Assembly (NCBI GenBank): GCA_024679065.1
Contig: JAGIQG010000032.1
Location: 13,392,001 to 13,456,000, forward strand
Origin: Sphyrna mokarran
Taxonomy: Eukaryota
Length of the DNA stretch: 64,000 nucleotides
Direction of reading: 5' to 3'
Below the pieces are notes generated by a model. It saw only the letters and a list, made by a program, of their open reading frames with translations. It was not told the DNA's origin and made no database searches. Numbering within the stretch: position 1 is the first letter of the stretch; every line of letters starts with the position of its first letter. Positions 1 to 53,060 of the stretch are shown here, in pieces. A program made the translations under genes and the position numbers.

Positions 1-1189
1 CTTAATGGAGAGATATCAGGACAACTTATCAAACAACAAAATTTGTATTTAACAGACAAAGACAGTCAGTAAATTAATCTAGATAATTCTTGCTTCTAAC
101 CATACTATGGATGTGGACAGCTTGAGACACCTCTTCAGTTTTATTTCCCTGTGTTTTCTTGTATTCTTGATCCTGTTCAGGTGAATTACTTTATCCTTTG
201 CAGCCAAAGGTCTTGCTGTGTGCTAATGTTGCCATTGTGCTTTGTCCTTATTATTTAGTTAGTCACAGACAAATATCTCAGGGTCATAAACTGAACAGGA
301 TACCTTCAACATCTAAACAGTTCATCATTGACTTTTTCCTGTACAAACATTTACAAACTTAATAACCCTTACACACTCATTTAGTTATATCTCAAAAGTC
401 CATTGGCCAATATATTTCAAAGCATATCCTTGATCACAATTGGTAACTTATTTTTGGATATCTGTCCTACTTTTCTTCCCCTTTCCACATTATGGTGTCC
501 ACTTTTACTTCAGTCTCAGAGATCAAAAGTCCTAAGTGTATATTTAGAATTAACTCTTCATCTACCAGCAGTTTATATGAAATACGCATAAAAAGAATTT
601 ATAGCATAACGTATAGAAAGTACAAAAAAAACCTACAATAACTCACAGTCAATCAGGCTGTCTTGCATACACTTAATGTGGAATGTAGGTTATTTTTCAA
701 GTCAGGGAATATAGTCTTCAAATTCCAATTTCCAAGCTGAAAAATTACCTTTCTTACTGACCCCATCCTACCAAACTCTCATGATTTAGATAATGAATAA
801 ACAACTTATACTTCAGTTTTACTTGTTGTTTGTGATTATTTCTCCAAATAAAATGGAACTGACAATCCAAATAATACAATAAATATAACAAAAGTTATGT
901 GTTTATGTAGATAAAATAAGTTCCAATTGAAGAACTTTTGAATTAAATCATTTTAAGAATAATGCATCAGTTGCTGCAAAAAAAATCAGTGGAGGGAAAA
1001 AAGTCAGCACAAGTCTTCTAATTTGATAAAAGGCTTGTGAACTACAAGTGTCAATAGACCATGATGATCTAAAATATTGACAAGTTAAATTGACTAAGAA
1101 GTTCATTGCAGACCGTGGTGAAAAAACAGACAGTATCAAGTTGGCTGCCTATTCTATGTGGCACCTGATACTTTATTACATAGACAACA

Positions 1190-1530
1190 ATGGTAGTGAG
1201 GTAGTGGTATTGTCAATGCACAAATACTTTTGAGAACCAGGGTAATGCTTTGATAGCTTGGCCATCCCATTATGGCAGATAGTTCCAATCTCACTGCAGC
1301 AAATTCAATAATTCAAGTCAATTGTTGTATAGAACCATCTGATTCATGATTCCCTTCAGGGAAAGAAATCTGCTGCCAGGCCTAGTCTGGCCTATATGTG
1401 ACTCCAGATCCACAGCAATACAGTCTGAAATAACCAAGCAAGCCATGCAGTTGTTTCAAATCACTAAACAGAATGAAACCCAATAGACCACCTGGCATTG
1501 ACCAGAAATGACAATGGCAAACTCAACTGC
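1190..1530 (+). mobile_element. tRNA-head + Meta-domain element continuing into LINE 5' region (degenerate)
   Basis: A-box-like GAGGTAGTGG near 1198; Meta-like core CAGGGAAAGAAATCTGC..GTCTGGCCTATATGTGACTCCAGATCCACAGCAAT; then GACCACCTGGCATTGACC..GGCAAAC, the same linker seen in the 20695 and 31216 copies. Confidence 0.65.
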
Positions 1531-1812
1531 CCCTAAGTTTTGATGCATCCCTCAGCATGTAGTCCTACATCTTGGAAAGTACCAGGCTGAAACTCTTGAT
1601 CATCAGTGGCTCTTTGCACTAGAAGTCCAGTAGGTTTAAAGAGGCTTTCACTGACTTGATCAATTAATACTTATATTGGTGTGAATCCCTGGAAACAGTT
1701 CATTGAGCAGAGTCTGACATTACAGGGATGTTTGGGATGCACCTTAATAAAATCCACTGCATCGCTATCCAGACCTACGTTGCAAACACATGATCCAGAA
1801 GATTGTAACCCA

Positions 1813-2084: not shown

Positions 2085-2570
2085 ACTGGAATATCCTCCC
2101 TAAACCTCTTCACCTCACTAATTCACTAACTCCCTAAAGGGTAGCACAGTGTTTAGCTGCCTCTCAGCACCAGGGACCTGGGTTCGATTCCTGGCTTGGT
2201 CACTATCTATATGGAGTTTGCATGTTTTTCCTGTATCCACGTGGGTTTCCTCCGGGTGCTCCAGTTTCCTTCCACAGTCGGAAAGACGTGCTGGTTAAGT
2301 GCATTGGCCATGCTAAACTCTCCCTCAGTGTAGGAGAATTTCACAGTAAATTCATTGCAGAGTTAATGTAAGCTTACTTGTTACACTAATAAATTCCTTT
2401 TAAATTTACATTTTTAATTCTTGCACCTCCTTTCAGTTCTTCAATTTTGATCAAGCTTATGAAGTACTATTCTAATATTTTTTAATGTGACTTCATCAAA
2501 TATTGTCTAATAATGCTCCTGTGAGCATTTTTACTGTTTTTAAGTTGTTGCATAATGCAAATTGTTGTTG
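2085..2570 (+). mobile_element. L2 LINE 3' end, interrupted by a V-SINE
   Basis: CTGGAATATCCTCCCTAAACCTCT before the SINE; TGATCAAGCTT..ATAATGCTCCTGTGAGC..AATGCAAATTGTTGTTG L2-type tail after it. Confidence 0.55.
2138..2408 (+). mobile_element. V-SINE (HE1-related), 'Rex-type' tail
   Basis: B-box GGTTCGATTCC; V-domain TGGAGTTTGCATGTT..GTGGGTTTCCTCCGGGTGCTCCAGTTTCC; tail TACTTGTTACACTAATAAA. Confidence 0.85.
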
Positions 2571-2955
2571 AGTGAGTTATTGTGTCGGCTCTCTATTGTA
2601 GTTGTGCATTCACCCTGGTCAAACTGCCTTTAAAAATAATTTAATAACCCCTAACCCAAGTTACTCTTTCACAGATTCCAGGAACTGAGTGGCCTAGTCC
2701 AGTTTCTATACATCTCACCTCCTTTCCCAAATATTGTTCAGCTCCTAAGGAGAATGTGTGATGTGTGGCATCTTTAAAAATCTCCCCCACGAATACCTCT
2801 GTGGTTGCTATTAGCAGTGTTTACCTAAGTCAACACCACACTTGGCATGTTGCAATAATGTGGGATAATCTCCTCTTTAGGCAACTTGGCTAAAGTTAGT
2901 AAATTCACGTCTCAGAGAAATGTGAGTATAAATGATAGATTGGAACTACTCTACC

Positions 2956-3252
2956 GGCACGGTGGCACAACATTCAGCACAGCTGCCTCACACACTAGGG
3001 ACCTGGGTTTGATTCTTGGCTTGAGTCACTGTCTATGTGGAGTTTGCACATTCTCTCTGTGTCTATGTGGGTTTCCTCAGGGTGCTCCAGTTTCCTCCAC
3101 AGTCTAAAGATGTGCAGGTTAGGTTGACTGGCCCTTCACGTCAAGAGATTAATAGGGTTGATAGGTCAGGCTGTGGGGATAGCACCTGGATGGGATTGTG
3201 GTCAGAGCAGAATGGAGGCCAAATGGCCTCCTGCACTGTTGGGATTCTATGA
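2956..3252 (+). mobile_element. V-SINE HE1-like, CR1-type tail
   Basis: GGCACGGTGGCACA head, B-box, V-domain, tail GGCCAAATGGCCTCCTGCACTGTTGGGATTCTATGA. Confidence 0.85.
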
Positions 3253-3829
3253 ATTATATGCTTTAAAACTCATTTAAATAAATGTGATCAAAATAGGAAT
3301 TTAATTAATTCTTGAATTCAACAGATTGAATTATCACTTCAATCTGATTAAGTATTTTTCCAGAAATTAATAAACTTGCTGAGATGACTGACACATGTGG
3401 AAAGGCATCATTTGACATGAAACAAAACAGAAATGGATTCAAAAATTTAGCTTATGTGGCACCATACTGTGAACAAAAGGATTGCAGGGTGCTTCATGAA
3501 ATCTTGTGTGTCAATGTAGAAAACTGCAGAAGCTGGCTAACAGCTTCAAAGGCTTACACAATGCCGAAACTGGCACTTAGACAGTAGCTTCAATTATAAA
3601 CCCATGGCTTATAAAAACCTGTGACAAGATTTTGTGACCCAAGTTGTGGATATGCCACTGATTATTAGTAATATTGAGAAATCGATACTATATATTTTTG
3701 AAATGTAGCCTATATAGATGCTAGACTTGCACTTAAGTTGATGAATTTAGAATATCATTTGACGGTTATGGGACTGCAGATCACCCTAGGATGCATTCTA
3801 ACATGCTCCTGGCCTGACCCTCTAATCTG

Positions 3830-4195
3830 TCCTTAATTTGACTTTCCTCTCTCCAGTAATAATTTCCCATGTCTTCCCTCCACTATTAGTTTTCCAAACT
3901 CTTCTCTTCAGTGCCAATCTTCTTCCTCTTTTCAGAGCTAATCCAGCATTCTCTCTTCCCAGTCCAAGTCTATCAGTTTTCTCCCTCCACTGCTGCCTTG
4001 AACCCTCTGTTTGCAGTGCCTGTCTTCCATTCTCCTCTCTTCAATGCTAATCTTATCTTCCTCCACAGTGCACATCTTGCCTTTTTCCCTCATGGTAGCT
4101 TTTTACACTTCTCCATCCAGTGCAAGTCTTCCACTCTTTCTTTTAAAGACTTCCCTCCAATGCTGGTGTTCCACTCCACAGGTTCCCGTTCTTTG
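3830..4195. repeat. Degenerate pyrimidine-rich minisatellite-like tract
   Basis: Recurring CAGTGC/CAATGC followed by CT-rich spacers roughly every 20-30 bp. Confidence 0.45.
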
Positions 4196-5254: not shown

Positions 5255-5600
5255 AATAAAAGTCTATTCATTTGTGGAATGTGGGCATCAGTGACTGGGC
5301 TAGCATCTATTGCTCATCCCTAATTGCATGAACTGAGTGGCTTGCCAGGGCATTTAAGTGTCAACCACACAACTATGGTCTGGAGTTACATGTAGGTCAG
5401 ACCAGGTAAGGGTGGCAGATTTGTATCCTTAAAGGACACTAATGAACCAGAAGGCTTTTGTTTATGACAATTGACAATGGTTTTACAGTCATCATTCAAT
5501 TTTTAATTCCAAATTTTATTAAATTGAATTTAAATTTCAGCATTAATCATGGTGGGGTTCAAACCTGAGTTACCCTGGGTCTCTGGATGACTGGTCTAGT
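5255..5600 (-). mobile_element. Meta-domain SINE (head + Meta core + LINE-derived tail)
   Basis: Minus strand reads ..CTGCCACCCTTACCTGGTCTGACCTACATGTAACTCCAGACC..GCAAGCCACTCAGTTC..GCAATTAGGGATGAGCAATAGATGCTAGCC..GAAT. Confidence 0.75.
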
Positions 5601-7050
5601 TATAAATAGCCTCTGATCTGAGCCTCCCTGTCATGAAGCCACATTGTTGTGAGGCAGAACTCAGCAAATTACATAACAGTCTTCATTCCTCCATTTTATC
5701 TTGAAGTAAAGAGACAGCCCAAAATAATTATATAAAACTTTTTTATTCATAGAAGACATCAAAAGATAGAACAACAATTATATTGTAACTTAAGCTACAG
5801 TTAAAATATAATGGGATCTAGATCAAGAGGAGCTGATCTAACCCATATAGTACTAATTTTTGGGTGGCTTCCTAAAATCTTGCAAAGTTGGTCAACTATT
5901 TCAAGATCTTTCACCTGCCTTTGTTTGAATCTGCAATCTATGTTACTGTTTAGTCTTATTACCTTCTCCACCTTCAGCCTTTATATTGGTTCCAATATGC
6001 TTTTTCCAAGCAGGCCTCCTGTGACTTTGGCTCCAATTCATCAGGCTTTCAGCAATATACCCCATTACCTCAAGGAAGCCGGGATGGCACTAATCACAAA
6101 GGTAAGAACAGATATGGCAACAACTAGTTCCTTTCAAAGATGAAATCTAAACAAGAACAGTTAACTTGATATAAGAGAATGACATAGTTAAAATAAAGAC
6201 AAAATAGTTTTCTTTGCTACAAAATTATCTGTAATTTTTTCCATCGCTAATGTTTTCACTCTCTTTTTAGCTCTGTATTTCTGGAGCTGTTGCATTTGTA
6301 GATATATTGCAATGACTGACTTGGAGTAATCTATACGTCAATTCTCTTATTAGTTTTAATTGGCAATGACCTTCTATTGTCTATAGCTAGTTTGTCATGA
6401 TTAATTTTGATGCATACAGTCTCACTGAGAAGAATATAATATAGTCATTAACACTGAAATACTTGACTAATAGCAATATTTTCTGTGCCATAAAGGTGTG
6501 TGACGTTTTTTAAATTGAAATTATTTATCAATTGTAATTGAGATTTTGTAGAATGCTTTTCTCTGCAGTAGTTATTGTGAATAATGGATGTTCTGAAGAT
6601 TTATATAACTCTGTGTTCAAACACATTACCTAGGCTGTTCTGGATTTTTTTACCATTGCCCCATCTCAAACATGTCGATGGCGTTAAAACGTAAGCGTAT
6701 ATGCTTCGTATATGGAGTTGTGGAGCTGAAACTGTTAGATTATGCAGTGTTGACTCACTAATCAATAATATAGAATGCTATGTCCCCTCTAGGGTAGGGG
6801 CAAAAAAAATTGCGTGGCCTGTTCCAAATGCAATTTCACGGTGGGACACGCATGCATACAATTAAATTCTGTCCATAAAGTCACAAAGAAGACAATAAAG
6901 GAGGCAAGGGCCAACAAGCAGTCTTCTAAAACTGCACATCTTAACTCAACATAACAGTGGAACGGTGTATTGGGAGGTTAGCTTCTATCATCTGGTGCAG
7001 TAGGAATTGGAACCAACACCAGGACAAACACAGCTGTTCCTGCAGCTGTG

Positions 7051-7845: not shown

Positions 7846-7942
7846 AACATATTAATGTCTGTAATATCTGACTCTCAACTATTTTTTTCAGTTAATTCAG
7901 ACAGAGTTTGTTTATAATTATTTGATTATTTTTAAACAAAGT

Positions 7943-8562
7943 TTTTTTAATTCATTCCTGGGACATGGGTATCATTGGCTGGCCAGCATTTATTGTCCAT
8001 CCATAGTTGCCCTTGAGAAGTTGGTGTTGAGCTGCCTTCTTGAATCGCTGTGGTCAATGTTCTGTGGGTTTACTTACAAAGCCATTAGGAAGGGAATTCT
8101 AAGATTTTGACCCAGCGACTGCGAAGGAACGGTAATATATTTCCAAGTCAGGATGATAAGTGGCTTGGAGAGAAATTTGCAGTGGTGTTCTCATGTATTT
8201 GCTGCCCTTGTCCTTCTAGGTGGAAGTGGTCATGGATTTGCAAGATACTGTCTAATGATCTGTGGTGAATTACTTGTAGGTAGTACACACTGCTGCTACT
8301 GAGTGTCAGGGTGGAAGGAGTGGATGTTTGTAGAAGTGGTGCCAGTCAAGTGGGCTGCTTTGTCCTGGATGGTGTCAAGCTTCTTGAGTCTTGTTGGAGC
8401 TGCACCCATGCAGGCAAGTTGGGAGTACTCCATCACACTCTTGACTTGTGCCTTGTAGATGGTGGATAGGCTTTGGGGAGTCAGGAGGTGAGTTACTTGC
8501 TGCGGTATTCCTTGTCTCTGACCTTTGTTCTTGTAGTCACTGTTTTTATATGGTGAATCCAG
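7943..8562 (-). mobile_element. Old CR1-group LINE 3' portion (family whose tail matches the Meta-SINE)
   Basis: Minus strand encodes IYKAQVKSVMEYSQLACMGAAPTRLKKLDTIQDKAA; ends AAGGGCAACTATGGATGGACAATAAATGCTGGCC..GAATTAAAAAAA. Confidence 0.85.
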
Positions 8563-8964
8563 TGCATGTCATATCCTTTTTTCATCTGAATGTTTTCCAC
8601 TAATCTGTGTTCTTGGGACTGCAAATGTAGTTTGCTACAATCTTTTAGCATCAGTCATAACGTAAAGCCATTTGCTGTTCAGGTCACCTGAATGTTTTTC
8701 GAAATACTAGACTCCTTTGTTTACGATAAAATTGAATGACAGCATTTAGCAAGCATCAATTGCAAATATAAAACTAAAGAAGGAGATTTAGTAACATTCG
8801 CACTGTCAAAGATATTTGATGTCTTCTAATACAAGTATATTAAAGTCTCTAAAGGTTGTTTCTCTTAAATATTTGTGATGCTGGTTAGAGGAGAATATTG
8901 TGAGGACCTCAGTTTTGGGAAAAACAAACTGGTGCATTAGTTGAAGCTTGATGAAGCCAGCTAT

Positions 8965-10862: not shown

Positions 10863-12210
10863 TGTTAAGGCGCAATGCTTCAGAACAAAATGAATGGCTG
10901 CTTGGGCAAATGAGGGTTAATTAAGGGAATTGTTGGGATCCACTCCAGGTGAGTTTCTCCAAGTTGTTGATCCGGGTGTGATGTCTCAATTTGTCACTGT
11001 CTAGATGGAATACCCCCAAACTATTACAGCCCGGGTGAGGAGGGACACACTGGCACAATGTCTTTATTTGGCCCCCACTATTGGTTGCAACAAGGTTGAA
11101 TATAAAAAGAATCCCTTTTCGCAGAGAGCCTTTAGTTCTGTTTTAAAATAAGCCAATTTATCCAGGTTTTCTTGAGTTAGAAGTAGTGAGTTTATTAATT
11201 GCTAGATGCAAGAAAAGTTTTTTTAAAGTTTAAAGTCGAAGTTTGAAGTTTATTTATTAGCGCCACAAGTAGATTTACATTAACACTGTAATGAAGTTAC
11301 TGTGAAAATCCTTTAATCACCATACTCCAGTGCCTATTCGGGTATGCTGAAGGAGAATTTAGCATGACCAGTGCACCAAACCAGCACACCTTTCAGACTG
11401 TGGGAGGAAACCAGAGTTCCCAAGCCAGGAGTTGAACCCAGGTTGCTGAATAAGAAGATCCAAACATTTTTAAAGATGCACATGTTTCTTTTGTTTTTTG
11501 GTGAATTTGTCTCTTGTTGATTGAGATGGCATATTCAGATTTCTAAAAGTCAAAGGCAAATTGCAAAGCTTTGTGTTTGCAGTGATATCTGGGTGTATGT
11601 AACTTTTATTTCTTGCGACCTGCTTTGAAGCTTGCTCATGAAACCTTTCCTGTTATTTTCAATGGACTCCTAAGCAGCAGTGTTCATCTTTTAATTGCAC
11701 CTTTTCTCAGAAAGGAAAATGGTCCTTTTTTCCTGAGATCACAAATAATTCTTTAGTCCTCTTTTTTGCGTATCTTTTATTAGCTGACCTCACATCTGAA
11801 AATTAATACTTATCCACAAAACAAAAAGTGGAAGAAACTCAGAGGCACTGATACCTGCTGCTTTATTGATTCTAGATTCATGTTATTTGAGCTTGTGAAA
11901 TTGAGCCTATGTTAGTTTGTAGGTTAATGGATTTTTCTAGTTGTTCATCTCTCACGTGTCAGGTCCATTCACACCTGGTTCGCAGTGGCCAGCCTGTACT
12001 TTAATAGCATTAGTTCTCAAGATCTCACTTACTTGATTGTGGTGGTTTATTTATGCTGTACATCCAGTTGTGATAACAATTTCAGTTGCAATTTGTTAAG
12101 GTGATAACTAAAATTTGTATTTTTTATTCCCTCTGACATTGCTCACTTGATCGTACCCTGTACAGTCACTTGTAAAAAGGAATATTGTGTGTCTGTTAAC
12201 ACATTCCCCC
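10863..12210 (-). mobile_element. Candidate LTR with adjacent polypurine tract (contains a V-SINE)
   Basis: Termini TGTTAA (10863) and TTAACA (12196-12201); the minus strand has PPT-like GGGGGAATG directly before TG; minus-strand AATAAA near 11065 and 11192. Confidence 0.45.
11224..11450 (-). mobile_element. V-SINE, 'Rex-type' tail, internally deleted
   Basis: Minus strand: CCTGGGTTCAACTCCTGGCTTGGG..GGTTTCCTCCCACAGTCTGAAAGG..TACTTGTGGCGCTAATAAATAAACTT. Confidence 0.8.
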
Positions 12211-19072: not shown

Positions 19073-20446
19073 TGCACGGATTCTCCTGGCACAGTGTGTA
19101 CGATGATGACTTGGAGAATCAGGAGTTGGTTGAAAAATGAGTTTTGCGCCGAGTGCCAAACGGGTGCATTGTAGTTAGCACTGTTGCCTCACAGCACCAG
19201 GAATCTGGGTTTGATTCCGGCTTTGGTCACTGAATGTGTGGAGTCTGCATGTTCAGCTCGTATCTGCATGGGTTTCCTCGAAATGCTCTGGTTTCTTCCC
19301 ATTATCCAAAAGATGTGCAGATTAGGTGCATTGACTGTGCTAAATTCTCCCTCACTGTACCCGAACAGGCACAGGAGTGTGGAGAGTTGGGAGTTTTCAC
19401 TGTCATTTCATTGTTATGTTACTGTAAGGCTACTTGTGATAATAATAAATAAATTTTAAGCTGTAACCTGTTGCAACCCTTCCAGATACACAGCCGACCC
19501 CAATTGTATTCCTGGACGGAGCTTACAAGATGCATATTAATGTTCAAATAACTTCCTTAGGATCTTATCAGTGTATTTGGAGGCCAGTTCAATGGCCACT
19601 TGAGATGCTCTCACCCCTCCAACCTGAAATAACATGGGCGTGAATTGGCAGAGGTCTTTTCAGAGACCTGGCAGACTGAGCACCAAAAAGACCAAAGAGA
19701 TCAGTTGCCGTTTGAAAGTTATACTGGGATGTGGGGGGGGGTCTCACTAAGCAGCTGTGGGTGGTGATGTCCATGCTGGTAGTTAGAGGGACCTTGGAGG
19801 TTCCTTATCCCCACGCCACAACCCCAGTACTTGGGAGTGACCTGGCTGAATGCCCTCATGCTGTGGGGGAAGAGTTAAGAGAATTGACTAAAATCCTGTT
19901 CTCAGGTAACTGACCTGTAATTATGTAGCTTAGCATCAATCGCATGTCTCACTTGCGATGTCTGCTTCCCCCACAGATAATGTTGTATGTCTTGTCCATC
20001 TGCGAGTCTGCATTAATCTCAAAGGGAATCCATAGGCACACTGGGCATATTTGACTCAGTGACCCTGACTTGTTGGCATACATTCATGAACTGCTCCTAC
20101 ACACTGGGGTTGCCAGGTGTATTTGGGATCTTGCCCTTTAAAGACTGACTGTGGTGCTTGTACAAATCCTCTCAATGCCTCTCAATCACAGCTGCGGAAC
20201 TAGTTAAGAAGAGGGTCAGCTGAGGAGAGTTAAGTGAATGAGCACGTCAACAAGTATCAGATGTATCAGTGGTCTGCCAGTCAACCCATGTAACATCGAT
20301 GAATTGCTCGTTGAGTCGATCACTCAAGGCCTCATTAAGGCTCTCTCCCTTCTGTCATTGCTTCGCAGCTGCTCAATCTGACCACCTCCAGCCTCTGGCC
20401 TTCCTGCTAGTGTGGCCGCTAAGTCCCAAATCGGAGAATGGGGCCT
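19073..20446. mobile_element. Non-autonomous DNA transposon (Harbinger-like), interrupted by V-SINE
   Basis: Imperfect termini GGATTCTCC..GGAGAATGGGGCC; interior is GC-richer than the flanks. Confidence 0.45.
19163..19459 (+). mobile_element. V-SINE, 'Rex-type' tail
   Basis: tRNA-like head, V-domain, tail GTAAGGCTACTTGTGATAATAATAAATAAA. Confidence 0.85.
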
Positions 20447-20694: not shown

Positions 20695-21200
20695 TGGTAA
20701 CATGTCATGTTATTTTAATCATCGTGCAGAAGCCTGAACTAATGACCCAGCAACATGAGTTCAAATTTCACTGTTCCAGCTAGGGAATTTAAACTGAACT
20801 AATTGAATAAATCTAGGATAAAAAGATAGTTTGGAGACCATGAATTTAGCAGATTGTCATAAAAAACCTATCCGGATTACTAGGGAAAGCAAACTGCCAT
20901 CCTAATGCAATGTGGTCGGTATGTGATTCCAGATCCATAGCAATGGTTGACTTTTAATTGACCTTCGGAAAAAAGAATGCTAAATGGGAAAGAACACCTG
21001 GCATCGATCCAGGCTCCAAGTACGTCAAGGGTCCGGCAAAGACGTCCTCACTATCGTCTGGGAACTTGCACCAAGATTTGAAAAGCTGTTCCACATACTA
21101 ATCCAACAACAGCCTGATGTGCTTAAAGAATCAAACGTCCTAGATCCCTCCACCGCTATCCCTGGGTGGGACCTGTCCCTTGGGGACAGCTGTAAATATA
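20695..21200 (+). mobile_element. tRNA-head + Meta-domain fused to LINE endonuclease (APE) start
   Basis: B-box GAGTTCAAAT near 20757; Meta core 20881-20965; ORF 20984-21232 VWELAPRFEKLFHILIQQQPDVLKESNVLDPSTAIPGWDLS resembles the APE N-terminus (GLxxKLxEL..QQPDI..TES..IPGY). Confidence 0.7.
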
Positions 21201-21446: not shown

Positions 21447-22076
21447 TAGGTTGAGTAGCCTTTATCCACAAATCCAAAAACCAAATATATCCGAAAACCC
21501 CACATTTTTTTTAAAACCACATAGCCATTTAGTACAGGAAGTAACCCAGGCTGACCTGACCAGCGCTCATATGAACATTATCAACTGCACCGGACCTTTA
21601 TTGTTCAGTGTTACATCTTGCTTTTCTAGCCATGTTATTTAGTTCAGACCGTAACTGGCCACTAGGTTTAGGGCATTGGAATGTAAGTAGGCCTAAGTCT
21701 ATGGGTGGCACAGTGGTTAGCGTTGCTGCCTCACAGCGCCCAGGGACCTGGGTTCGATTCCTGATTTGGATCAGTCTGTGTGGAGTCTGCACGTTTTCCT
21801 CACGTTTGTGTGAGTTTTCCCTGGGTGCTCCCGCAGTCCGAAAGACATGCTGGGTAGGTGCATTGGCGTGCTAAATTCTCCCTCAGTGTACCCAAACAGG
21901 TGCCAGAGTGTGGCAACTAGAGGATTTTCATAGTAACTTCGTTGCAGTATTAATGTAAGCCTACTTGTGACATTAATAAATAAACTTTAAACTATTTGTG
22001 GTATCCGAAAATCAAAATTATCTGAAATCCAAATGCAATCGGCCCCAGGGGTTTCAGATAAAGGATATTCGAACTG
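21447..22076. mobile_element. TcMar-Tigger (Tigger4/Zombi-like) MITE, interrupted by V-SINE
   Basis: TA | TAGGTTGAGTAGCCTTTATCC ... GATAAAGGATATTCGAACTG | TA; subterminal ATCCRAAA repeats. Confidence 0.7.
21703..21991 (+). mobile_element. V-SINE, 'Rex-type' tail, near full length
   Basis: A-box TGGCACAGTGG, B-box GGTTCGATTCC, V-domain, tail CTACTTGTGACATTAATAAATAAACTTTAAA; possible CTAT duplication at 21699 and 21992. Confidence 0.9.
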
Positions 22077-25620: not shown

Positions 25621-26448
25621 AAAAAAAATTCTTTTTCAAAGCCTTACAAATTGTGCGTTCTTAAGTGGTGCATCCATGCAATGTAGTATTCTTTTGCTTC
25701 ACTAGTAATTTTCAATGATTAAAAAGTTGGCAAAATAGTCTGATTAGACAAACTGCTCTTTTCATTCAGTCAAAAAAAGCAGTGTCCTGCACTGACATTG
25801 CAAGGTTAGATCAATAAAAGGTAGATTTTGTGTGAGCTTTAGTTATGCTATGACTAGTGCAAAACAATGCAATCTGTAGGAGATATCTTAATTTCCCTCA
25901 GTCCTTCCAAATTATGGAGTAAGTTATTCATATTGTTGGAGATCAATCATCTTAGCTCCAGGATGTCATTGCAGGGTTTCCTCAGGGAAGTGTTCTATGC
26001 CCCAATCATCTTCATCAATGAACTTCCTTCTATCATAAGGTTAGAAATGGAGATGTTCACAGATGACTATACAGTGTTCAGCATTGTTCATTCTTCAGAT
26101 ACTGAAGCAGTTCATGTCCAAATACAGCAAGACCTTGACAATATCCAGACTTAGGTTGGCAAATGGCAAGTAACATTTGCAGCACACAAGTGCCAGGCAA
26201 TGACCACCTCTAACAAAAGAATTTTGATCACTGCCCCTTGACATTCAATGGCATTAGTATCACTAAATGCTCCACAATCAACATCCTGAGATTACCATTG
26301 ATCAGAAAAACTCAATTGGTATAGCCATATAAATACTGTTTTACTCCTGACACTGCCCCTGCCCCCCCCAAAAAACCTGTCCACTATCTACAAGACAGAA
26401 GTCAGGAGTGACTAACTAACTCTCCACTTAGTTAGATGAGTAGAACTT

Positions 26449-27648
26449 AACATAGAACATAGAACACCACAGCACAAACAGGCCCTTCGGCCCACGAGTT
26501 GCGCCGATCACATCTACCAATCCACAGACCTATCCATAACCCCCTATCCTATTCTTTTCCATATACTCATCAGAAGTCTTTTAAAAGACCCCAGTGAGTT
26601 TGCCTCAACAACCTCCGACAGCAGTCGGTTCCATTTACTCACCACCCTCTGAGTGAAAAACCTACCCCTGACATCTCCTTTGTATTTGCTTCCCTGCCCC
26701 TTAAATCTGTGTCCTCTCATAGTGACCATTTCAGCTCGGGGAAATAGTCTCTGAGATTCCACCCTATCTATTCCTCTCAACATTTTATAAGCCTCTATCA
26801 GGTTGCCTCTCAACCTACGTCTCTCCAGTGAGAAGAGTCCCAGCTCCCTCAACCTATCTTCGTAAGGCCTGCCTCCCAATCCAGGCAGCATCCTTGTAAA
26901 TCTCCTCTGAACTCTCTCAATAGCCTCTACATCCTTCCTATAATGAGGCGACCAGAACTGCGCACAATATTCCAACCGGGGTCTGACAAGAGTCTTATAG
27001 AGCTGCATCATTACCTCCTGGTTCCTAAACTCTATTCCTCGATTAATGAAGGCCAGTACACTGTACGCCTTCTTGACCACTTCCTCCACCTGCGAGGCCA
27101 ATTTAAGAGTCCTATGGGCCCGGACCCCGAGATCCTTCTGTTCTACAACACAGCTAAGACTCCTACCCCTTATATTGTACTCCTTCATCCCATTATTCCT
27201 GCCAGAATGGACCACTACACATTTATCTGCGTTGAAGTCCATCTGCCACTTCTCCGCCCAGTCTTGCATCCTGTCTATGTCCCGCTGCAACTTTTGGCAT
27301 CCTTCCAGAACATCCACAACACCACCGATCTTTTCATCGTCGGCGAACTTGCTAACCCATCCCTCCACTTCCTCATCCAGGTCATTTATGAAAATGACAA
27401 ACAGCAGGGGTCCCAGAACAGATCCCTGGGGCACTCCTCTGGTTACCGACCTCCATTCAGAACAAGACCCATCCACAACCACTCTCTGCCTTCTGCCGGC
27501 AAGCCAGTTCTGGATCCATGAGGCCAAAGCCCTTTGGATCCCATGCCCTCTCACCTTCTCCAGAAGCCTTGCATGGGGGACCTTATCAAACGCCTTACTA
27601 AAGTCCATGTACACTATGTCCACCGCCCTTCGTCAATGTGTTCAGTCA
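26449..27648 (-). mobile_element. Young 5'-truncated CR1 (HER1-like) LINE, copy 1
   Basis: Intact RT frame, GGCCGAAGGGCC stem-loop, (GTTCTAT)n tail at 26449-26466; CpGs retained. Confidence 0.95.
26544..27623 (-). CDS. CR1 ORF2 reverse transcriptase, C-terminal 359 aa (truncated; the annotated start is not a real start)
   Basis: YMDFSKAFDKV, GVPQGSVLGPLLF, KFADD, LEYCAQFWSP, RRLRGNLI motifs. Confidence 0.9.
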   Translation of the reverse strand: MDIVYMDFSKAFDKVPHARLLEKVRGHGIQRALASWIQNWLAGRRQRVVVDGSCSEWRSVTRGVPQGSVLGPLLFVIFINDLDEEVEGWVSKFADDEKIGGVVDVLEGCQKLQRDIDRMQDWAEKWQMDFNADKCVVVHSGRNNGMKEYNIRGRSLSCVVEQKDLGVRAHRTLKLASQVEEVVKKAYSVLAFINRGIEFRNQEVMMQLYKTLVRPRLEYCAQFWSPHYRKDVEAIERVQRRFTRMLPGLGGRPYEDRLRELGLFSLERRRLRGNLIEAYKMLRGIDRVESQRLFPRAEMVTMRGHRFKGQGSKYKGDVRGRFFTQRVVSKWNRLLSEVVEANSLGSFKRLLMSIWKRIG

Positions 27649-28174
27649 TAGAACATAGAACATAGAACACTACAGCACAAACAGGCCCTTCGGCCCACAA
27701 GTTGTGCCGAACACATCAAAAACCTACCCAGCCATAGACCTATCTATAACCCCCAATCCCATTGGATCCCATATACTCATCCAGAAGTCTTTTAAAAGAC
27801 CCCAGCGAGTTCGCCTCGACCACCACCGACGGCAGCCGATTCCATTCACTCACCACCCTCTGAGTGAAAAACTTTCCCTAGCATCCCCTCTGTACTTGCT
27901 TCCCTGCACCTTAAATCTGTGCCCTCTCGTCGCGACCATTTCAGCCCTGGGAAATAGTCTCTGAGAGTCCACCCTATCTAATCCTCTCAACATCTTGTAA
28001 ACCTCTATCAGGTCGCCTCTCAACCTTCGTCTCTCCAGGGAGAACAGTCCCAGCTCCCTCAACCTGTCTTCATAAGGCATGCCTCCCAATCCAGGCAACA
28101 TCCTTGTAAATCTCCTCTGCACCCTTTCAATAGCTTCCACGTCCTTCCTATAGTGAGGCGACCAGAACTGCGCA
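27649..28174 (-). mobile_element. Young 5'-truncated CR1 LINE, copy 2, nested near the 5' end of copy 1
   Basis: Own (GTTCTAT)n tail at 27649-27668; ORF 27850-28140; flanked by CAGTCA at 27643-27648 and 28175-28180. Confidence 0.92.
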
Positions 28175-28795
28175 CAGTCACTTCAATAACACTCAAGAAG
28201 CTTGACATCATCGAGGAAAAATCAGCCTGCTTAATTGCTATGTCTTCCACAAACATTCCACCACTAATAGATAGTGGCAGCAGCGCATACCATATACAAG
28301 AAGCATTCATAAACTCACCAAAATTCCTTAGGCAGTGACTTCCAAACCCGCAGCCAGTACTACCTAGAAGGACAAGAGCAGCAGATACTCAGGATCACAC
28401 CACCCTAGAGGTTCCCCTCCAAGTCATTCTGACTTGGAAATATATTGCTGTTCATTCCTTGTCACTATGTCAAAATCCATCCCTCTCTAACAGCACTGTG
28501 GCTGTACTTACACTTGAGAGATTGCAATGGTTCACCACCATCCTCTGAAGGGCAATGAGGCACAGGCAATAATTACTGGCTGAGCCAACGACAACAGCCA
28601 CATCTTTAAAAGTGAATTTTAAAATATGTATGTTTACTTGAGTTGTAAAAGTAGCTTTAATGTGTGCAATCCGTACATATCTAATTCTTGTGTGGATCCC
28701 CTACTGTACTGATTACTCGGTCTCATCAAAACCACAGCATTGCAACACCATGTGACATTAAAGCTGCTGAACTGTCACGCCTTATAGTCAGAGAT

Positions 28796-29085
28796 ATCAT
28801 AGAATCCCTACAGTGCCTAAGGAAGCCATTCGGCTCATTGAGTTGCACCGACACCAATCCCACCCAGGGTCTATCCTTGCTTAGTTACCCTGCTGATCCC
28901 TGTAACCTATGGGACCCTAAGGGTTAACTTAGCATGTCCAATCAACCCAACCTGCATGTCTTTGGACTGTGTGAGGAAACCGGGGCACCCGAAAGAAACC
29001 ACTCAGAAACGGGGAAAATGTGCCAACTCCACACAGTGACCCAAACCGGAAATGGAACCCGATCCCTAACCACTGTGCCACCATA
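28796..29085 (-). mobile_element. V-SINE HE1-like, CR1-type tail
   Basis: Minus strand: TGGTGGCACAGTGGTTAG head, V-domain, tail CACTGTAGGGATTCTATGAT. Confidence 0.85.
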
Positions 29086-29770: not shown

Positions 29771-30477
29771 CTTTTTCTGCATTACTTACTTTAATGTAAC
29801 AGTGTTCGAGTTTCTCAGAAATAGCATTCTCTTCCTTCCGTTGCAAGGGTTTTTATGGTTTACCCTTTTTTCTGGCCACATATGTATTCCCCAGTTTTTT
29901 TTGCAATACATCAACCAACAGGATAACAAAGACTGGATCGCTGCGTATTTGGGCCGACTCTGAAAGACTTTAAAAATAGAGGACCCAACCCAGACGCAAA
30001 GCTCCCCACGCCATTTTCAGCTGTTTTGTTTGTGGAAGGAAGAGGTGGGGTATGAATCACATGAAACTCGCACAAAACAGGGTCATTTGAAATTTCTGCT
30101 AAGTTCAAACAGATCCTACAATGGTGATTGCAAGGGCTATGCTTTATAACGTGAAAGTCCCAAATTGATGGAGGAAACATAAACGGTCTTGACAGATGGA
30201 CGTCTATTAAGTCTCACGATCGAAGTTATTGAAAACCATAGCCGGTTCAACACAAAGCACAGAAGCTGCAGCTGCCAGTTTATAAAACAAATGTGTGTTT
30301 TTGGACTAGATTGATTGACAAGCCATCCCGTGTACCTTTGAAAAAAATACCATCACCATCTGTTCCTGCAATTTCAATAGTCTCTATTTTTAATACTTCC
30401 CAAGGTGAACTCATTATGAATGTTTGGCTGAGTTTCAGAATTTCCCAGTAACGGTTCACTATGGAGAGACACTGATT

Positions 30478-31216
30478 TATCAACTGAGGGAATAGCTAGG
30501 TGGTAACCAGCAGGATGTTTCCTCACTTATATTCAATCTGATACCATGAGACTTCATGGTGTCTGGTATCAATATTGAAGAGTCCCATGATGATCCCTTT
30601 CAACTGTATACCACTATACTGCCAACTCTGTTCATCTGCCTTGCTGGTGGCAAAGGACATACCCATGATTGGTGATGGTAGTCTCTGGGACATTATCTGT
30701 AACATACAATTCCGTGAATTTGATCATGTTAGCCATTTTCTTGACTAATCTATGAGACAGCTCTCCCAATTGTTAGCAAGGATGACTTTGCAAGGTTGAA
30801 AGGGTTCACAAAGTTTGCCGTTACCATTTCTGGCACTTAAGTGAATGCTGGGTGGCCTGTCTGGTTTCTTCCTTTTAGGCTTTGTAGCAGTTTGATAAAA
30901 CTAAGTTGCTCAGCCCTTTCAGAGGGCAGTTAGGAATCAACCACATCGCTGTACATCTAGAAACACATATAGGCCAGACCAAGTAAGGACTATAGATTGC
31001 ATTTCCTCAAGGACATTGGTGAACCAGATGGGTTTTTACAACAATTGACAATTGGTTTTGTAATTACCATTTAGACTAATGTTTAATTTTGGATTTATTA
31101 ATTAAATTTAAATTCCACCAGCTGCCCTAGTAGCTTTGGAACCCATATCCACAGAGAATTATCCTGGGCCTCTACTTACTAGTCCAGTGATATTACCACT
31201 ACACCATTTTGTCCCC
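30478..31216 (-). mobile_element. LINE 5' end: tRNA head + Meta domain + endonuclease N-terminus
   Basis: A-box TGGTGTAGTGG (31196-31206 minus), Meta core ~30920-31015, then LGELSHRLVKKMANMIKFTELYVTDNVPETTIT..GYVL and, after frameshifts, NIDTRHHEVSWYQI (APE domain). Confidence 0.8.
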
Positions 31217-35945: not shown

Positions 35946-37213
35946 TTTGTTATTTGACTTCATTCATTGATCTGAGTCTTGTGGTTCATTGGCTGGTCTA
36001 TCAATAATAATAAAGATTGACCCATTCTTGGCCAGTCTCTAGGACAAAGTTCCATTTTAAATGAGTATTTCACCTCAGGGAAGGATTCATATTTCCTGCT
36101 GTAGCTCACAAGACCACATTTTCTATTGGTTAAATAAATTAAGACCATATCTTCCTCTGCGGGCTAGTTTATAAAATATTGGATATGAGTATATAGTAAG
36201 ATCACTATAAAGCTGTAGATCTGTGCCTTGATTCTAGGATAACAAGAGTTTATTATAATTAACTCTGAAAAGTTTGCTTGTTAGACTCTTTGAAATGAGT
36301 AATAAGTCTGTCCAATAAAGTATTGAGAACAGCTAGACTTATGAGTTTTGTTAGTGAGTGTGTGAGGTAGGTAGCCTGCGTCCCTGCAATCACATGAGAA
36401 TAAATTTAGCAGGACTGTCTCTTATGAATGCACTCACTGATGAGATGGGATACAATTGTCCCTGTCCTTCTGGACTTGGAAAACTTTGGAAAGAAACCAG
36501 CCAGGATTCAATGGATAAAATTTAATTTGAATAGATAATCTGGATTCCATTCACTTGTGGAATTTGAGATGGAATTTGGCACAACGTTCCTTGAAAGAAT
36601 TGAACAGACTTGGTAAAATCCATGAATAAGTAGATTATTTGTTGCCTGAGGAGGGACCACACTTATAGATAGATAAATGGTCTTTTGTTATTAATTGTAA
36701 TTCAACCTTTTTAATGAAGGAAACACCAAGTGATATAATGCAGTGATATAACAACACATTTTACATGGAATACAAGGAAATGTTTCATATCCCCTGCATT
36801 GTGATTTTTTTCACCCTCAACTGATGTTTCAGGGAAAGTTAACAAGTGGATATTTCCTGGAAAGAAAGGGAAGGCCAGTTGTAGTGTAATGCAATATGTG
36901 TATGATTTTGTGTGCATTCCAATACCATTCATCCCACAGCAATGTTATTGATGCATTTACAGGTAAATTAAGTACTGCAGGAGAAAGGAATGGAGGAATA
37001 TGTTGACATGGTAAGGTGGTGTAAGATGAGAGGAAACATGGGAAATGAGAAACTGTCAGATGTTAATTCATGCCCTCTTTATTTGCATATCAAGAAACAG
37101 TTCAAGGACTGCACTTTGCTAGAGGAAATAGATGGTGAATGATGTCATAAAAAGACTTGAGACCAAAATGTTGAAGCATTTTGCTACCTTCCAACGCTGC
37201 AGAAAAAGTTAAC

Positions 37214-37631
37214 TTAGAACATAGAACATTACAGCGCAGAACAGGCACTTCGGCCTTCAATGTTGCACCGACCAATTAAGAAAAAGCAATGACCCTCTAA
37301 CCTAAACCATTCCCTTTTCATCCATAAACTTATCTACTAACCTCTTAAACGCCACCAAACTTGGCGCATCTACAACTGCAGCAGGCAGGGCATTCCATAC
37401 CCTTACCACCCTCTGGGTAAAGAACCTACCTCTGATATCCGTCCTATAACTACCACCCCTTAATTTAAAGCTATGTCCCCTCGTGCTAGCTTTCTCCATC
37501 CTAGGAAAAAGGCTATCACTGTCCACCCTATCTAAACCTCTAATCATCTTATATGTTTCAATAAGGTCTCCTCTTAGCCGCCTTCTTTCTAATGAAAACA
37601 ACTTCAAATCCCTCAGCCTCTTTCATAAGAC
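37214..37631 (-). mobile_element. Young CR1 LINE 3' fragment
   Basis: ORF 37302-37607 is nearly identical to the C-terminus of the 39188 copy; (GTTCTAT)n tail. Confidence 0.95.
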
Positions 37632-39187
37632 CCGCTTGGAGTTGTTTGCAGTGCATCAAATTCACCAGCGGGAAAAAGAAGATGGAGACATTTGCACCAA
37701 AGCTATTGAAACTTCACAAGCACAACATTGCAAATAGTTTAATAACTACATTCCCTCCAAATTATTTACTTTTTAATGTATTATAAAAGATTGAGTAATG
37801 AAGAGCTTTGATATTTTCAGTTTACAATATGTTTAAGTATTTATGTTTCCATTCTTAGCGCAGATTTGAAATTTTTGACTATAGTCATTTCTAAGATTTC
37901 CTTCTTCAACTTTCTCATGCAGAAGTTTTGAGAGTGCCACTTATTTTTCCAGTTAAGTTAACTCAAACTCGATGTTGATAAACACATTTTATGATTGCAT
38001 GATTATAATCTGGCCTAAATAATCACATCCATGTGCTTGATTAGCTGTGGCACACAGATAACAACTGTCTAAATCCAAATATTATATACACCTTAATTGT
38101 TCTGCTTGATCTAGAGTTTATTACAAATGCTTTACATTAAAGGTAATGCAATTTAGATTTGTTTACAGCAGAGATCTGAATAAAACCAGATTGCATTTAT
38201 TTACAACATTATGAACTGAGTTAAGCAGTGTTTAATGAATGAATCATATTGCAGCGGGAACCATTGTCAGTGCAGGAATGCATTTCACATTTAGTTCAAA
38301 ACGTTTAATAGTTGCAATCACATTGGTAAATAACTTACATTTATGCTTTAAAGTTCATGTGATTGAAATTTCAGGGAACAAAGTGATTAGAAACATCATA
38401 CATATTCTAATAGTCGGGGAATCAATGCACAATCATATGCAGTCATTTGACTTCTAGTTACAGATCACACATGGTTGAGTTGCTCACTATATCGAAAATA
38501 TTGCTGCATGAAAGAAAATGTTCTTCCTGGTTCTCCATTACTCTTGACTTGCTCCATTGATTTCCACCTATCCATATCTTGCTCAGTTTTCACTGCCATT
38601 TTTCTTCAGCCAAGGTTGCCACTTCTGGATATTCAGGGTTTCAGCTCCTCTGGCAGGGCGCTTTTGAATACTAAAAATAAAATGGTTAACATCTATTGCA
38701 ATCATATACAGAGGAGTGATTGTACAAACATGGTTCAGAAGTGTTTTATTAAATGAAATTAAACCCCTTAGATGTTTTTTAGTTACCTATAATGCCACTC
38801 CAAGATTGGTCACACGGTGGCTCGAATGAAGGCAAACAAGATAGGAAGTATCTTTTTCTTTTCTCCTGGAATATGATGTTAATATGTAGTTCATCAATTA
38901 CCCAATAGTCAAGATGGTTTATAACTTGTTGAAGTGATTCAGGTTTAAAATAACTGCACTTGAAGCTAGCCTTTGACTTTGTTAAAAACAGTGAAGATCA
39001 TACTTGATTATTTCCACTGCATTCCCTTCACATAAGCAATTCAATTTAATTCATAACACAGCACTTAAATCTGAACTCCTTACTGTTGATACATTGAACT
39101 GAAATCCTCAGCAATATCTGATCCAGTGAAAAGTAACAAACTTGTGTTAACGCACTAAACAGGGAGAGGATTAGTTGAAGGTAACAG

Positions 39188-40653
39188 TTGGATAAGTCCC
39201 CTGGGCCGGACGGGATTTACCCTAGGATTCTCTGGGAGGCAAGAGAGGAGATTGCAGAGCCTCTGGCTCTGATCTTCAGGTCGTCGTTGGTTACGGGTAT
39301 GGTTCCGGAAGACTGGAGGATAGCGAATGTGGTCCCATTGTTCAAGAAGGGGAAGAGAGACTTTCCAGGGAATTATAGGCCAGTGAGTCTTACTTCTGTT
39401 GTGGGCAAAGTATTGGAGAGAATTATTAGGGATAGGATTTATAGTTATTTAGAGAGTAATGAATTGATTGGAGATAGTCAGCATGGTTTTGTGAAGGGTA
39501 GGTCGTGCCTTACTAACCTCATTGAGTTTTTTGAAAAAGTGACTAAGGAGGTGGATGGGGGTAAGGCGGTTGATGTGGTATATATGGACTTTAGTAATGC
39601 GTTTGATAAGGTGGCCCATGGAAGACTTCTGCAGAAAATGCAGATGTATGGGATAGAGGGTGATTTAGCTAATTGGGTTAGGAATTGGCTAGCAGTTAGA
39701 AGACAGAGGGTGGTGGTTGATGGGAGATATTCATCTTGGAGTTCGGTGACAAGTGGTGTACCTCAGGGGTCTGTTTTGGGGCCCCTGCTGTTTGTAATTT
39801 TTATAAATGATCTGGATGAGGGTATTGAAGGATGGATTAGTAAATTTGCAGATGACACTAAAGTCGGTGGAGTGGTAGATAGTGAAGAGGGGTGTTATAG
39901 TTTGCAGAGGGACTTGGACAAGTTGCAGAGCTGGGCCGAGAGGTGGCAAATGGAGTTTAATGTGGAAAAGTGTGAGGTAATGCACTATGGCAGAAATAAT
40001 AAATGTGTAGAGTATAGGGCAAATGGTAGGATTCTTAGTAGTCTAGATGAACAGAGGGATCTTGGTGTGTATGTGCATAGATCCCTGAAAGTAGGCAGTC
40101 AGGTCGAGAAGGTTGTTAGGAAGGCATATGGAGTCTTGGCTTTTATTGGTAGAGGGATTGAATTTCGGAGCCGCAACGTCATGTTGCAACTGTACAAAAC
40201 TCTAGTGCGGCCGCACTTGGAGTATTGTGTGCAGTTCTGGTCCCCACATTATAAGAAAGATGTGGAGGCATTGGAGAGGGTACAGAGGAGGTTTACCAGG
40301 ATGTTGCCTGGTATGGAGGGCAGGTCTTATGAGGAGAGGCTGAGGGATTTGAGGTTGTTTTCGTTAGAAAGGAGGAGGCTAAGAGGGGACCTGATCGAAA
40401 CATATAAGATGATTAGAGGTTTAGATAGGGTGGACAGTGATAGCCTTTTTCCTAGGATGGAGAAAGCTAGCACGAGGGGACACAGCTTTAATTAAGGGGT
40501 GATAGTTATAGGACGGATATCAGAGGTAGGTTCTTTACCCAAAGGGTGGTTCGGGAGTGGAATGCCCTGCCTGCAGCAGTTGTAGATGCGCCAAGTTTGG
40601 TGGCGTTTAAGAGGTTAGTTGATAAGTATATGGAAGAGAAGGGAATGGTTTAG
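39188..40653 (+). CDS. CR1 ORF2 reverse transcriptase (5'-truncated; 1-bp deletion near 40491, natural stop 40651-40653)
   Basis: DKSPGPDG, NYRPVSLTS, QHGF..RSCLTNL, PQGSVLGP, FADD; AGCTTTAATTAAGG here versus AGCTTTAAATTAAGG in the 37214 copy shows the frameshift. Confidence 0.9.
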
Positions 40654-40752
40654 TTTGGAGGGGCATTGCTTTTTATATTGGTTGGCGCAACATCGAAGGC
40701 CGAAGGGCCTGTTCTGTGCTGTAATGTTCTATGTTCTATGTTCTATGTTCTA
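39190..40752 (+). mobile_element. Young 5'-truncated CR1 (HER1-like) LINE
   Basis: Full RT domain, GGCCGAAGGGCC stem-loop, (GTTCTAT)n tail at 40726-40752. Confidence 0.95.
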
Positions 40753-43607: not shown

Positions 43608-44180
43608 GAAAGAAATGAAGTAACTCGGTATTTTATTGTACCTGTGATAATCAAAGGATGTCTCAGAGCACTTCATGGGCGAGTATGTATTGTTGCAGTG
43701 TAGTTATTGTTTTAATATAGGGAGCACACAATCCATACAAATTCATGTATAGCAAACTTCTAAAAACAAAATTAAATAAATGGCTAGATCATCTCACAGC
43801 ACTAGCGACCCAGGTTTGTGGGTCACTGACTGTGTGGAGTATGCACATTCTCCCCATATCTTCATGGGTTTCCTCCGGGTATTCAGGTTTCCTCCCAAAT
43901 ACCAAAGATGTGCAGGTTAGGGTGTTTGGCCATGCTAAATTGCCCCATAGTGTCAAGGTGACTAGCCACACAGTAAATGCATGGGGTTATGGGGATAAGG
44001 CTTGGGTGGAATTGTGCTTGATGCAGACTCAAAGGGCCAATTGGCCTCCATTTGCACTGTAGGATTCTATGATGTTGCTTGCGATTTAATTACAGGCTAG
44101 GACACTGGAAGAGCTCCCCTAATCTTTGAAAGATACCGGTTGACTGAGATCTCAGTTTAACATCACATCTGAAAGATAGT
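43608..44180 (-). mobile_element. DeuSINE split by V-SINE insertion
   Basis: Tail part at 43608-43792; Deu-domain part at 44075-44180 (GGACACTGGAAGAGCTCCCC..CTCAGTTTAACATCACATCTGAAAGA). Confidence 0.6.
43793..44072 (+). mobile_element. V-SINE HE1-like, CR1-type tail
   Basis: V-domain TGTGTGGAGTATGCACATTCTCCCC..; tail GGGCCAATTGGCC..GCACTGTAGGATTCTATGA. Confidence 0.85.
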
Positions 44181-45920: not shown

Positions 45921-46269
45921 TTTTTTAAAAATTCATTAGTTGGACATGGGTATCGCTGGCTGGCCAGCATTTATTGCCCATCCCTACTTGCCTGAGGGCA
46001 GTTGAGAGGCAACCACAGTACTGTGACTCTGGAGTCACATGTAAGTTAGACCAGATAAGGATGGCAAGCTTCCATCCCTAAAGGACATTAGTGAATCGAC
46101 AATCAACAATGGTTTCATGTTCATCAGTAGATCCTTAATTCCAGATTTTTTTTATTGAATTCAAATTCCACTATCTGCCATGGTGAGATTCAAATCTGTT
46201 TCCCCAGAGCATCACCTGACCTTCTAAATTAATTGCTTAGCGATAATACTACTAGGTCATCATCTCCCC
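45921..46269 (-). mobile_element. Meta-domain SINE, full length
   Basis: Head GGGGAGATGATGACCTAGTAG, Meta core, AACTGCCCTC joined directly to the tail AGGCAAGTAGGGATGGGCAATAAATGCTGGCCAGCCAGCG. Confidence 0.8.
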
Positions 46270-52825: not shown

Positions 52826-53060
52826 ATCATAGAATCTACAGTACAGAAGGAGGCTACTTGGCTCATCAAGCCTGCACCAACAACAATCCTACCCAGGTCC
52901 CATCCCCAAACCTCATATCTATTTACTCTCCAAATGCCCCTGACACTAGGGTCAATTTAGCATGGTCAATCAATCTAACCTACACGTCTTTGAACTGTGA
53001 GAGGAAACCAAAATCCACGCAGATACCGGGAGAATGTACAAACTCCACACAGACAGTTGC
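52826..53060 (-). mobile_element. V-SINE HE1-like, CR1-type tail, head missing
   Basis: ATCATAGAATC..CAATTTAGCATGGTCAATC..AAACTCCACACAGACAG. Confidence 0.85.

Follow-up and report, generated by a model that had tools for sequence, protein, structure and literature searches.

An elasmobranch Zenon retrotransposon with a tRNA-like head, and SINEs that may derive from it by internal deletion

The window analysed here, a 64,000-nt stretch of the Sphyrna mokarran genome (GenBank assembly GCA_024679065.1, contig JAGIQG010000032.1, positions 13,392,001 to 13,456,000, forward strand), carries pieces of a LINE, identified below as Zenon, and of a SINE that has both ends in common with it. Positions with a plus sign are counted from the 5' end of the LINE. 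The pieces are as follows.

30454..31215, minus strand: 5' part of an old-subfamily Zenon (+1..785), with tRNA-like head, leader/core, 129-nt linker and APE start, broken off within the APE; assigned by sequence and old-subfamily markers
31196..31206, minus strand: A box of the tRNA-like head; assigned by sequence, and matching the genome's own tRNA genes in their D-arm region
31133..31143, minus strand: B box, decayed; intact at about +72..82 in better-kept copies
30922..31120, minus strand: leader/core common to LINE and SINE; not the Meta domain
30454..30792, minus strand: decayed frame of the APE endonuclease, N-terminal part; Pfam gives Exo_endo_phos_2 for the natural copy L086
20715..21189, plus strand: second 5' fragment (+37..600), with head lacking the A box, core, linker and APE start
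1192..1575, plus strand: third 5' fragment (+5..452), with head, core and linker, ending at the APE start
5265..5605, minus strand: SINE with longer head (breakpoint near +316) and old-subfamily markers at both ends, 5'-truncated
45921..46268, minus strand: full-length SINE, in which the LINE's last ~70 nt follow the breakpoint at +289
7939..8563, minus strand: 5'-truncated LINE copy (+2657..3295), with ORF end, 3' UTR, GAAT repeats and A-run
25933..26441, plus strand: RT-region fragment (+2264..2814) of a 5'-truncated LINE copy
28181..28627, plus strand: continuation (+2819..3294) of the copy at 25933-26441, with inserted CR1 copies at 26441-28180 between them

The fragment at 31215-30454 (minus strand) is collinear with +1..785 of the element and 77% identical to it over 747 nt, and its A box lies at 31196-31206 on the minus strand, where the original prediction had placed it. 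A tRNA-like head with an A box had been claimed for five copies in the window; the head is present in all five, but the A box is recognisable in only three, because the copies at 5605 and 20715 start downstream of it. The passage from core through linker into the APE N-terminus, described for 30478-31216 and 20695-21200, was recovered with both quoted peptides in the translations, and the copy given as 1190-1530, said to break off after the linker, does end at the APE start. The copies given as 5255-5600 and 45921-46269 (here 5265-5605 and 45921-46268) join the core to the LINE tail, but at different breakpoints, and this tail is the LINE 3' end seen at 7939-8563 (minus) and 28181-28627 (plus). 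The pieces at 25933-26441 and 28181-28627 are a single 3' LINE fragment split by CR1 insertions. No complete LINE copy lies within the window. Since the three copies with head and linker all stop on reaching the APE or inside it, a link of head and tail in a single element could not be shown from the window itself. Three 5'-only fragments (1192-1575, 20715-21189 and 30454-31215) in 64 kb are odd, as a LINE normally loses its 5' end. ARAGORN called no tRNA in the 64-kb window. A second abundant tRNA-type SINE family, which we take to resemble the shark V-SINE HE1, is present at 2139-2394, 2961-3252, 11240-11416, 19162-19462, 21703-21993, 28796-29068, 43793-44079 and 52821-53057.

Across the 2.77-Gb genome of S. 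mokarran, the pieces make up an element of 3.3 kb that consists of a tRNA-like head bearing both an A and a B box, a 5' leader of ~430 nt, a single APE-RT frame and a 3' tail in common with the SINE. Nineteen of 29 genome loci chosen by linker and APE alone (four of the 19 being one segmental duplication) have the head or core at the expected upstream distance, and one more has it displaced. Among 20 loci chosen by the 3' end alone, two have the head upstream, at 3.2 kb and at 4.0 kb, and the 4.0-kb case holds a CR1 insertion. Head-to-tail copies were found at 12 of 60 loci and, with six from later sets, amount to 18 natural copies; as the full-length samples were selected for similarity and length, these counts are not genome-wide fractions. 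Some copies align as uninterrupted single stretches of 3.2 kb. Genome loci that were extended ended, as had been predicted, in the tail found at 7943 rather than in a different one, and the head-APE junction and linker are the same in dozens of copies instead of varying from copy to copy. At G000:C1548 (89.9-90.4 Mb), loci L009, L010, L015 and L025 have common flanks and go back to a single old Zenon insertion that segmental duplication has multiplied.

The 5' start is sharp: it is G-rich and precedes the A box by 9 nt, and the SINEs start at the identical point. In a selected sample of 65 copies with an APE start, 28 begin at +1..+9, and the flanks are unrelated in the 18 viewed. Neither an ORF1 nor a 5' UTR precedes the head. 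The 3' ends consist of GAAT repeats followed by a short A-run (poly-A tail). TSDs enclosing head to tail, which would have been expected from the original prediction, do not rise above background: a score of at least 7 was reached by 1 of 18 LINE and 0 of 30 SINE copies, and by 2.0% and 0.5% of the controls. The 3' part of the element at L151 (G000:C971) holds at least six tandem repeats of a ~72-bp unit that comes from where the Zenon ORF ends.

A column majority was taken from 30 copies, each 85-90% like it, and gives a single frame that spans +293 to +3228. The stops inside it are columns that mix TGA, CGA and CAA, as is typical of CpG decay, and what looked like a frameshift near +2207 was rejected as an alignment artefact in a G-run, where 10 copies are in frame and 9 are one base short. 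Pfam domains Exo_endo_phos_2 (APE) and RVT_1 (RT) were found on four of five natural fragments, with the APE starting near +430 from the 5' end. The element has no ORF1, and only a 36-codon upstream frame precedes the APE; this frame opens at the ATG at +348, which is kept in 32 of 39 copies (four commonest classes), and overlaps the APE start, and the older subfamily does not keep its stop. The majority has many upstream ATGs and no in-frame ATG ahead of the APE, and no canonical slippery site for a frameshift-type start was seen in it.

The older subfamily, which takes in the window's 30.5-kb copy and several of whose copies bear the head, differs from the main one (the pair being labelled A and B) by 38 silent versus 21 replacement codons, the changes falling 12/12/38 by codon position (third-position p=6e-6). 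As these head-bearing subfamilies differ mostly at silent sites, the headed element was under protein selection and hence autonomous, with its APE-RT under purifying selection. It is now dead; no young intact copy was present among the loci fetched, whose copies are 85-93% like the majority. The original prediction, a LINE that is autonomous, has a single ORF and bears a tRNA/Pol III-type head, is thus upheld by the head-to-tail copies, the single frame and the excess of silent changes.

As judged by comparison with published consensus sequences, the element is the known elasmobranch Zenon (Stuart et al. 2026, PMC13343379), which is reported there from five elasmobranchs as without ORF1, with a poly-A tail and more than 84% alike. 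The consensus rows CarCar_Zenon-1, RhiTyp_Zenon-1, ScyCan_Zenon-1, SquAca_Zenon-1/2/3 and HypSab_Zenon-1 (white shark, whale shark, catshark, three of dogfish, and stingray) were compared by eye over their first 400 nt, which are the head, core and linker described here, and the core motif is present in the CarCar and RhiTyp rows. The guess that the element might already be in repeat libraries was therefore right. The published consensus lengths are 2.9-3.3 kb, and of the S. mokarran subfamilies the younger looks like the RhiTyp row and the older ones like those of CarCar and SquAca. Since the Zenon lineage is reported in the same paper to be without ORF1 throughout, the missing ORF1 is unsurprising.

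The head starts all seven elasmobranch Zenon rows and none of the three rows from hagfish (two) and coelacanth (one), which begin with unrelated sequence containing TTTT runs; by eye, no TTTT occurs in the first 400 nt of the seven elasmobranch rows. Both the A and the B box are kept in all five published elasmobranch species. L192, the nearest relative with a 5' region, has no A or B box and no T-run depletion. Given that these few outgroups, including hagfish, coelacanth and L192, are without it, the head looks like an elasmobranch acquisition. The text and searchable supplement of PMC13343379 contain no match to 'tRNA', and the paper is silent on Pol III, on T-runs and on any SINE derived from the element. 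Neither a Zenon with a tRNA head nor a coding LINE driven by Pol III was described in the open-access listings and passages covered, and the tRNA head and SINE link of elasmobranch Zenon seem to be unremarked in print.

The closest intact proteins are APE-RT proteins of 950-1020 aa with 41-47% identity, several on contigs of 3.2-3.8 kb, together with a brittle-star model. In an RT tree (FastTree, 167 segments), the element falls in a 36-tip clade of invertebrate-type APE-RT proteins (support 0.92) that excludes the genome's CR1; as the tree held no named Zenon protein, the name rests on the match to the published consensus. A canonical vertebrate CR1, marked by an esterase ORF1 or by grouping with elements that have one, was considered and rejected, given the missing ORF1 and an RT that falls outside the clade holding the CR1 copy L109 of the same genome. 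The latter (3577-6546, on the element's sense strand) has kept an open frame of 990 codons. The core motif had no exact match in viral, prokaryote and metagenome contigs, which says little on its range because these collections hold little animal DNA; the viral contigs contained no true relative, and a homologue search with one APE fragment gave no match. Zenon RT fragments occur inside NCBI/UniRef gene models of rays and sharks (P0001, P0006, P0018, P0032 and P0050), either by exonisation or by annotation error. Many prokaryote assemblies (clam symbionts and sponge-type bins; L271-L350) hold animal-type LINE contigs, probably as host contamination.

In the head, the A box is at +10 and the B box near +72 of the element, and the fold of the majority is a cloverleaf whose variable arm is long and whose acceptor stem is imperfect. 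ARAGORN called a tRNA in one of 40 natural heads at default and in three under relaxed settings, as compared with none of 200 shuffles, and Rfam found no tRNA in the head of copy L081. The heads align to the genome's own tRNA genes with z of about 4-7, the isotype not being fixed by the 19 label classes sampled, among which there was no long-arm Ser or Leu gene; older heads have an AGT anticodon loop. The folding z is -3.3 for the head and -1.4 to +1.5, which is not distinctive, for the core, and an alignment fold of 12 heads showed no compensatory pairs. Dense arrays of tRNA genes, mostly Lys-TTT, Thr-AGT and Val-TAC, lie at G000:C446 (0.05-0.36, 1.8-1.9 and 3.9-4.4 Mb).

Pol III in vertebrates terminates at runs of at least four T (cited in PMC4494074). 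With CpG decay allowed for, the 3,298 nt of the sense strand contain 14 A, 11 C, 8 G and no T runs of at least four letters; the one TTTT in the raw majority (+2039) is read as CpG decay. The absence of TTTT has P=0.009 against base shuffles, P=0.12 against a dinucleotide model and P=0.085 against synonymous shuffles, the two whole-element figures (base, dinucleotide) being from a majority version that differs by one base and seven CpG sites. In the ORF, there are 3 runs of TTT or longer versus 12.5 in synonymous shuffles, with none of 2000 as low, and Phe is encoded by TTT at 2 of 18 sites, as against 63 of 169 for the remaining NNY codons (p=0.035). The absence of TTTT alone is therefore weak, and the strong signal lies in TTT, itself no terminator. 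Natural copies have 0.88 TTTT/kb, and simulated decay from a TTTT-free master gave 0.82 +/- 0.50.

Among 123 control LINE frames of at least 600 aa, out of 160 loci, none is free of TTTT, and the lowest TTT ratio is 0.70, versus 0.24 in the element. The young CR1 of the same genome, also used as a control, has 2.4-3.5 TTTT/kb and no depletion; it is of canonical type, with copies 96-98% alike, and lies in the window at 26441-28180, 37211-37635 and 39565-40752. The older subfamily has no TTTT over 2,178 columns, which is not independent because its string was built on the main majority. Such depletion can occur elsewhere, as an unrelated LINE RT frame on a metagenome contig (L253, 345-2111; 589 aa, below the control cut) has 1 TTTT versus ~14 expected, with normal TTT runs and no known head, its contig ending before the element's 5' end; it may be a further LINE that avoids T-runs. 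L238 has 2 TTTT versus 8.5 expected, and Phe is also low, at 1.7-2.5%, in three relatives. The T-run signal fits transcription by Pol III and does not prove it.

That the 3.3-kb coding LINE was transcribed by Pol III is, on balance, slightly on the probable side, even with SINEs reported as only 100-700 bp long, limited by Pol III processivity (PMC10886601), which counts against an RNA of this length. It is possible, with a chance that is well short of even and by no means negligible, that the head is fixed in the LINE and the long RNA was made by Pol II, which would have started at a promoter in the leader or read through from host sequence, the cloverleaf being excised as a processing signal. 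The role of Pol III would then be confined to the SINE derivatives, and the poverty in T-runs would come, for example, from avoidance of signals for U-rich decay or pausing. PMC10886601 states that Pol II transcribes LINEs, and the 5' end of the LINE lies ~2 nt before the position of the mature tRNA 5' end (inferred from the A box at +10), as processing could give; the imperfect acceptor stem counts against this account. The lack of significance of the TTTT depletion alone under the stricter nulls and the depleted but headless L253 agree with Pol II; however, this account does not predict a run depletion that is T-only, sense-only and beyond all 123 controls, nor is it favoured by the conservation of both boxes in the five published species.

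The SINE is a non-coding sequence of ~350 nt with A and B boxes, in which the last ~70 nt are the end of the LINE. An alignment of 30 SINE copies with 10 LINE heads showed that the first ~289 nt are common to both. The 52 head and tail joins, which include one false call (row L006) and are biased to the 45921 type, break at about five points from +262 to +316; several of these points fall on short shared letters, and no join has a SINE-only insert between head and tail. The same two joints were found in contigs of four other organisms. By head and tail markers of the LINE subfamilies, 33 of the 52 rows are AA, 4 BB, 3 AB and 2 BA (p=0.004), so that head and tail agree in 37 of 42 classifiable rows, with 10 unclassifiable; a caveat is that the marker used for the tail is a CpG site, which just 3 old LINE tails show. 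As the original prediction had proposed, the SINE looks like a 5'+3' deletion derivative, consisting of LINE parts only, with several breakpoints and with subfamily tracking at both ends, and repeated deletion from the LINE is the simplest reading of its origin and a likely one.

Descent in the other direction appears unlikely. An older tRNA-SINE with a Zenon tail would have given its head and body to the LINE, while the SINEs went on as a lineage of their own, the shorter ones arising from the longest, and recombination would have kept the resemblance. The head must indeed have come from a tRNA or a SINE, as other Zenons are without it, the shorter-head SINEs could derive from the +316 type, and the five rows with mixed markers and the slender basis of the tail marker agree with such a course. 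However, the aligned SINE variants lack any segment of their own and are joined at about five breakpoints, several with shared letters, and SINE head and tail follow the LINE subfamily. This alternative is compatible with transcription of the LINE by Pol III, because only who came first is changed.

Ingi elements with SINE-like 5' ends are said to have been reported. Short derivatives made of both ends of a LINE are known for lepidopteran Zenon (Wang et al. 2019, PMC6740152), likewise a single-ORF CR1-group LINE of ~3.3 kb that yielded 5'+3' deletion derivatives, possibly several times. Of these, the moth Zenon SIDE Persaeus is also just the 5' and 3' ends of its partner LINE, but it is without tRNA homology or Pol III promoter, whereas the SINE described here has A and B boxes that would come from its LINE. 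SINEs of the Bov-tA and AfroSINE type (Kojima 2018, PMC5786205) also have parts from both LINE ends; there, a tRNA head was added to a deleted RTE or Vingi, while in the present case the autonomous LINE already bears the head and belongs to the CR1 group. As sources of bipartite derivatives, PMC5786205 gives only RTE, Ingi, Vingi and R2.

The core had been thought to resemble the Meta domain of MetaSINEs. This was rejected, as the core does not resemble, by eye, either the 66-bp Meta consensus (PMC7245038 supplement) or the bivalve MetaSINEs (PMC4824008), and the Meta hallmark 10-mer has no match with fewer than two mismatches in the full-length copy L081, where 7 two-mismatch matches compare with 6.5 by chance. 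Because the core is not the Meta domain, the suggested LINE-linked origin of the widespread MetaSINE core falls as well. MetaSINEs (Nishihara et al. 2016, PMC4824008) also join a head of tRNA origin to a conserved body, some with CR1 or Zenon tails, and their heads are most like tRNA-Thr, as would suit the AGT anticodon loop of the older heads; given the differing body and the missing 10-mer, it is nevertheless very improbable that the core is the Meta domain and this LINE its source. That the head and the APE lie together by accident, through SINEs inserted beside LINE fragments, can be dismissed despite the abundance of both repeats (10,531 and 14,759 first-look candidates), as it is refuted by the constant junction and linker, the uninterrupted 3.2-kb alignments and the same start in the consensus rows of five species (PMC13343379).

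The reading to which we incline, with restrained confidence, is that of a dead autonomous single-ORF Zenon with a tRNA head, likely transcribed by Pol III from end to end, from which SINEs likely arose by repeated internal deletion. The ancestor of elasmobranch Zenon would have captured the head of a tRNA or tRNA-SINE by template switching, and the captured head would have replaced the Pol II promoter. Selection would then have purged TTTT terminators from the whole coding strand. As ATGs are numerous upstream and none ahead of the APE is in frame, translation of the uncapped RNA would have to start in a non-standard way, either cap-independently or by reinitiation. Template jumps or deletions at short microhomologies may have joined the promoter to the tail recognised by the RT, giving ready-to-go SINEs, and the tail common to LINE and SINE would serve target-primed insertion. 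In its fullest form, to which we would give about an even chance, elasmobranch Zenon would be an autonomous coding Pol III LINE, kept terminator-free by selection and translated without cap or in-frame AUG, and so in effect an autonomous SINE that spawns SINEs by one deletion. The TRIMp3 elements Cassandra, Helenus and Ajax (Kojima 2024, PMC10886601) are, like the element described here, non-SINE retrotransposons with a Pol III promoter derived from a small RNA, but they are short non-coding LTR elements of 311-1263 bp, whereas this one is a protein-coding non-LTR element of 3.3 kb.

In the textbook division, LINEs are coding and transcribed by Pol II, and SINEs are short, non-coding and transcribed by Pol III (PMC10886601). 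If the present reading is true, a coding LINE on a tRNA promoter would break this split between the polymerases, and elasmobranch Zenon would provide a test case for the maximum length of a Pol III transcript and for the translation of uncapped RNA. It would also provide a one-step route for the birth of a SINE, with promoter and tail from the same parent. Even if transcription by Pol III fails, the head and the link to the SINE would stand as unremarked features of an abundant family of sharks and rays.
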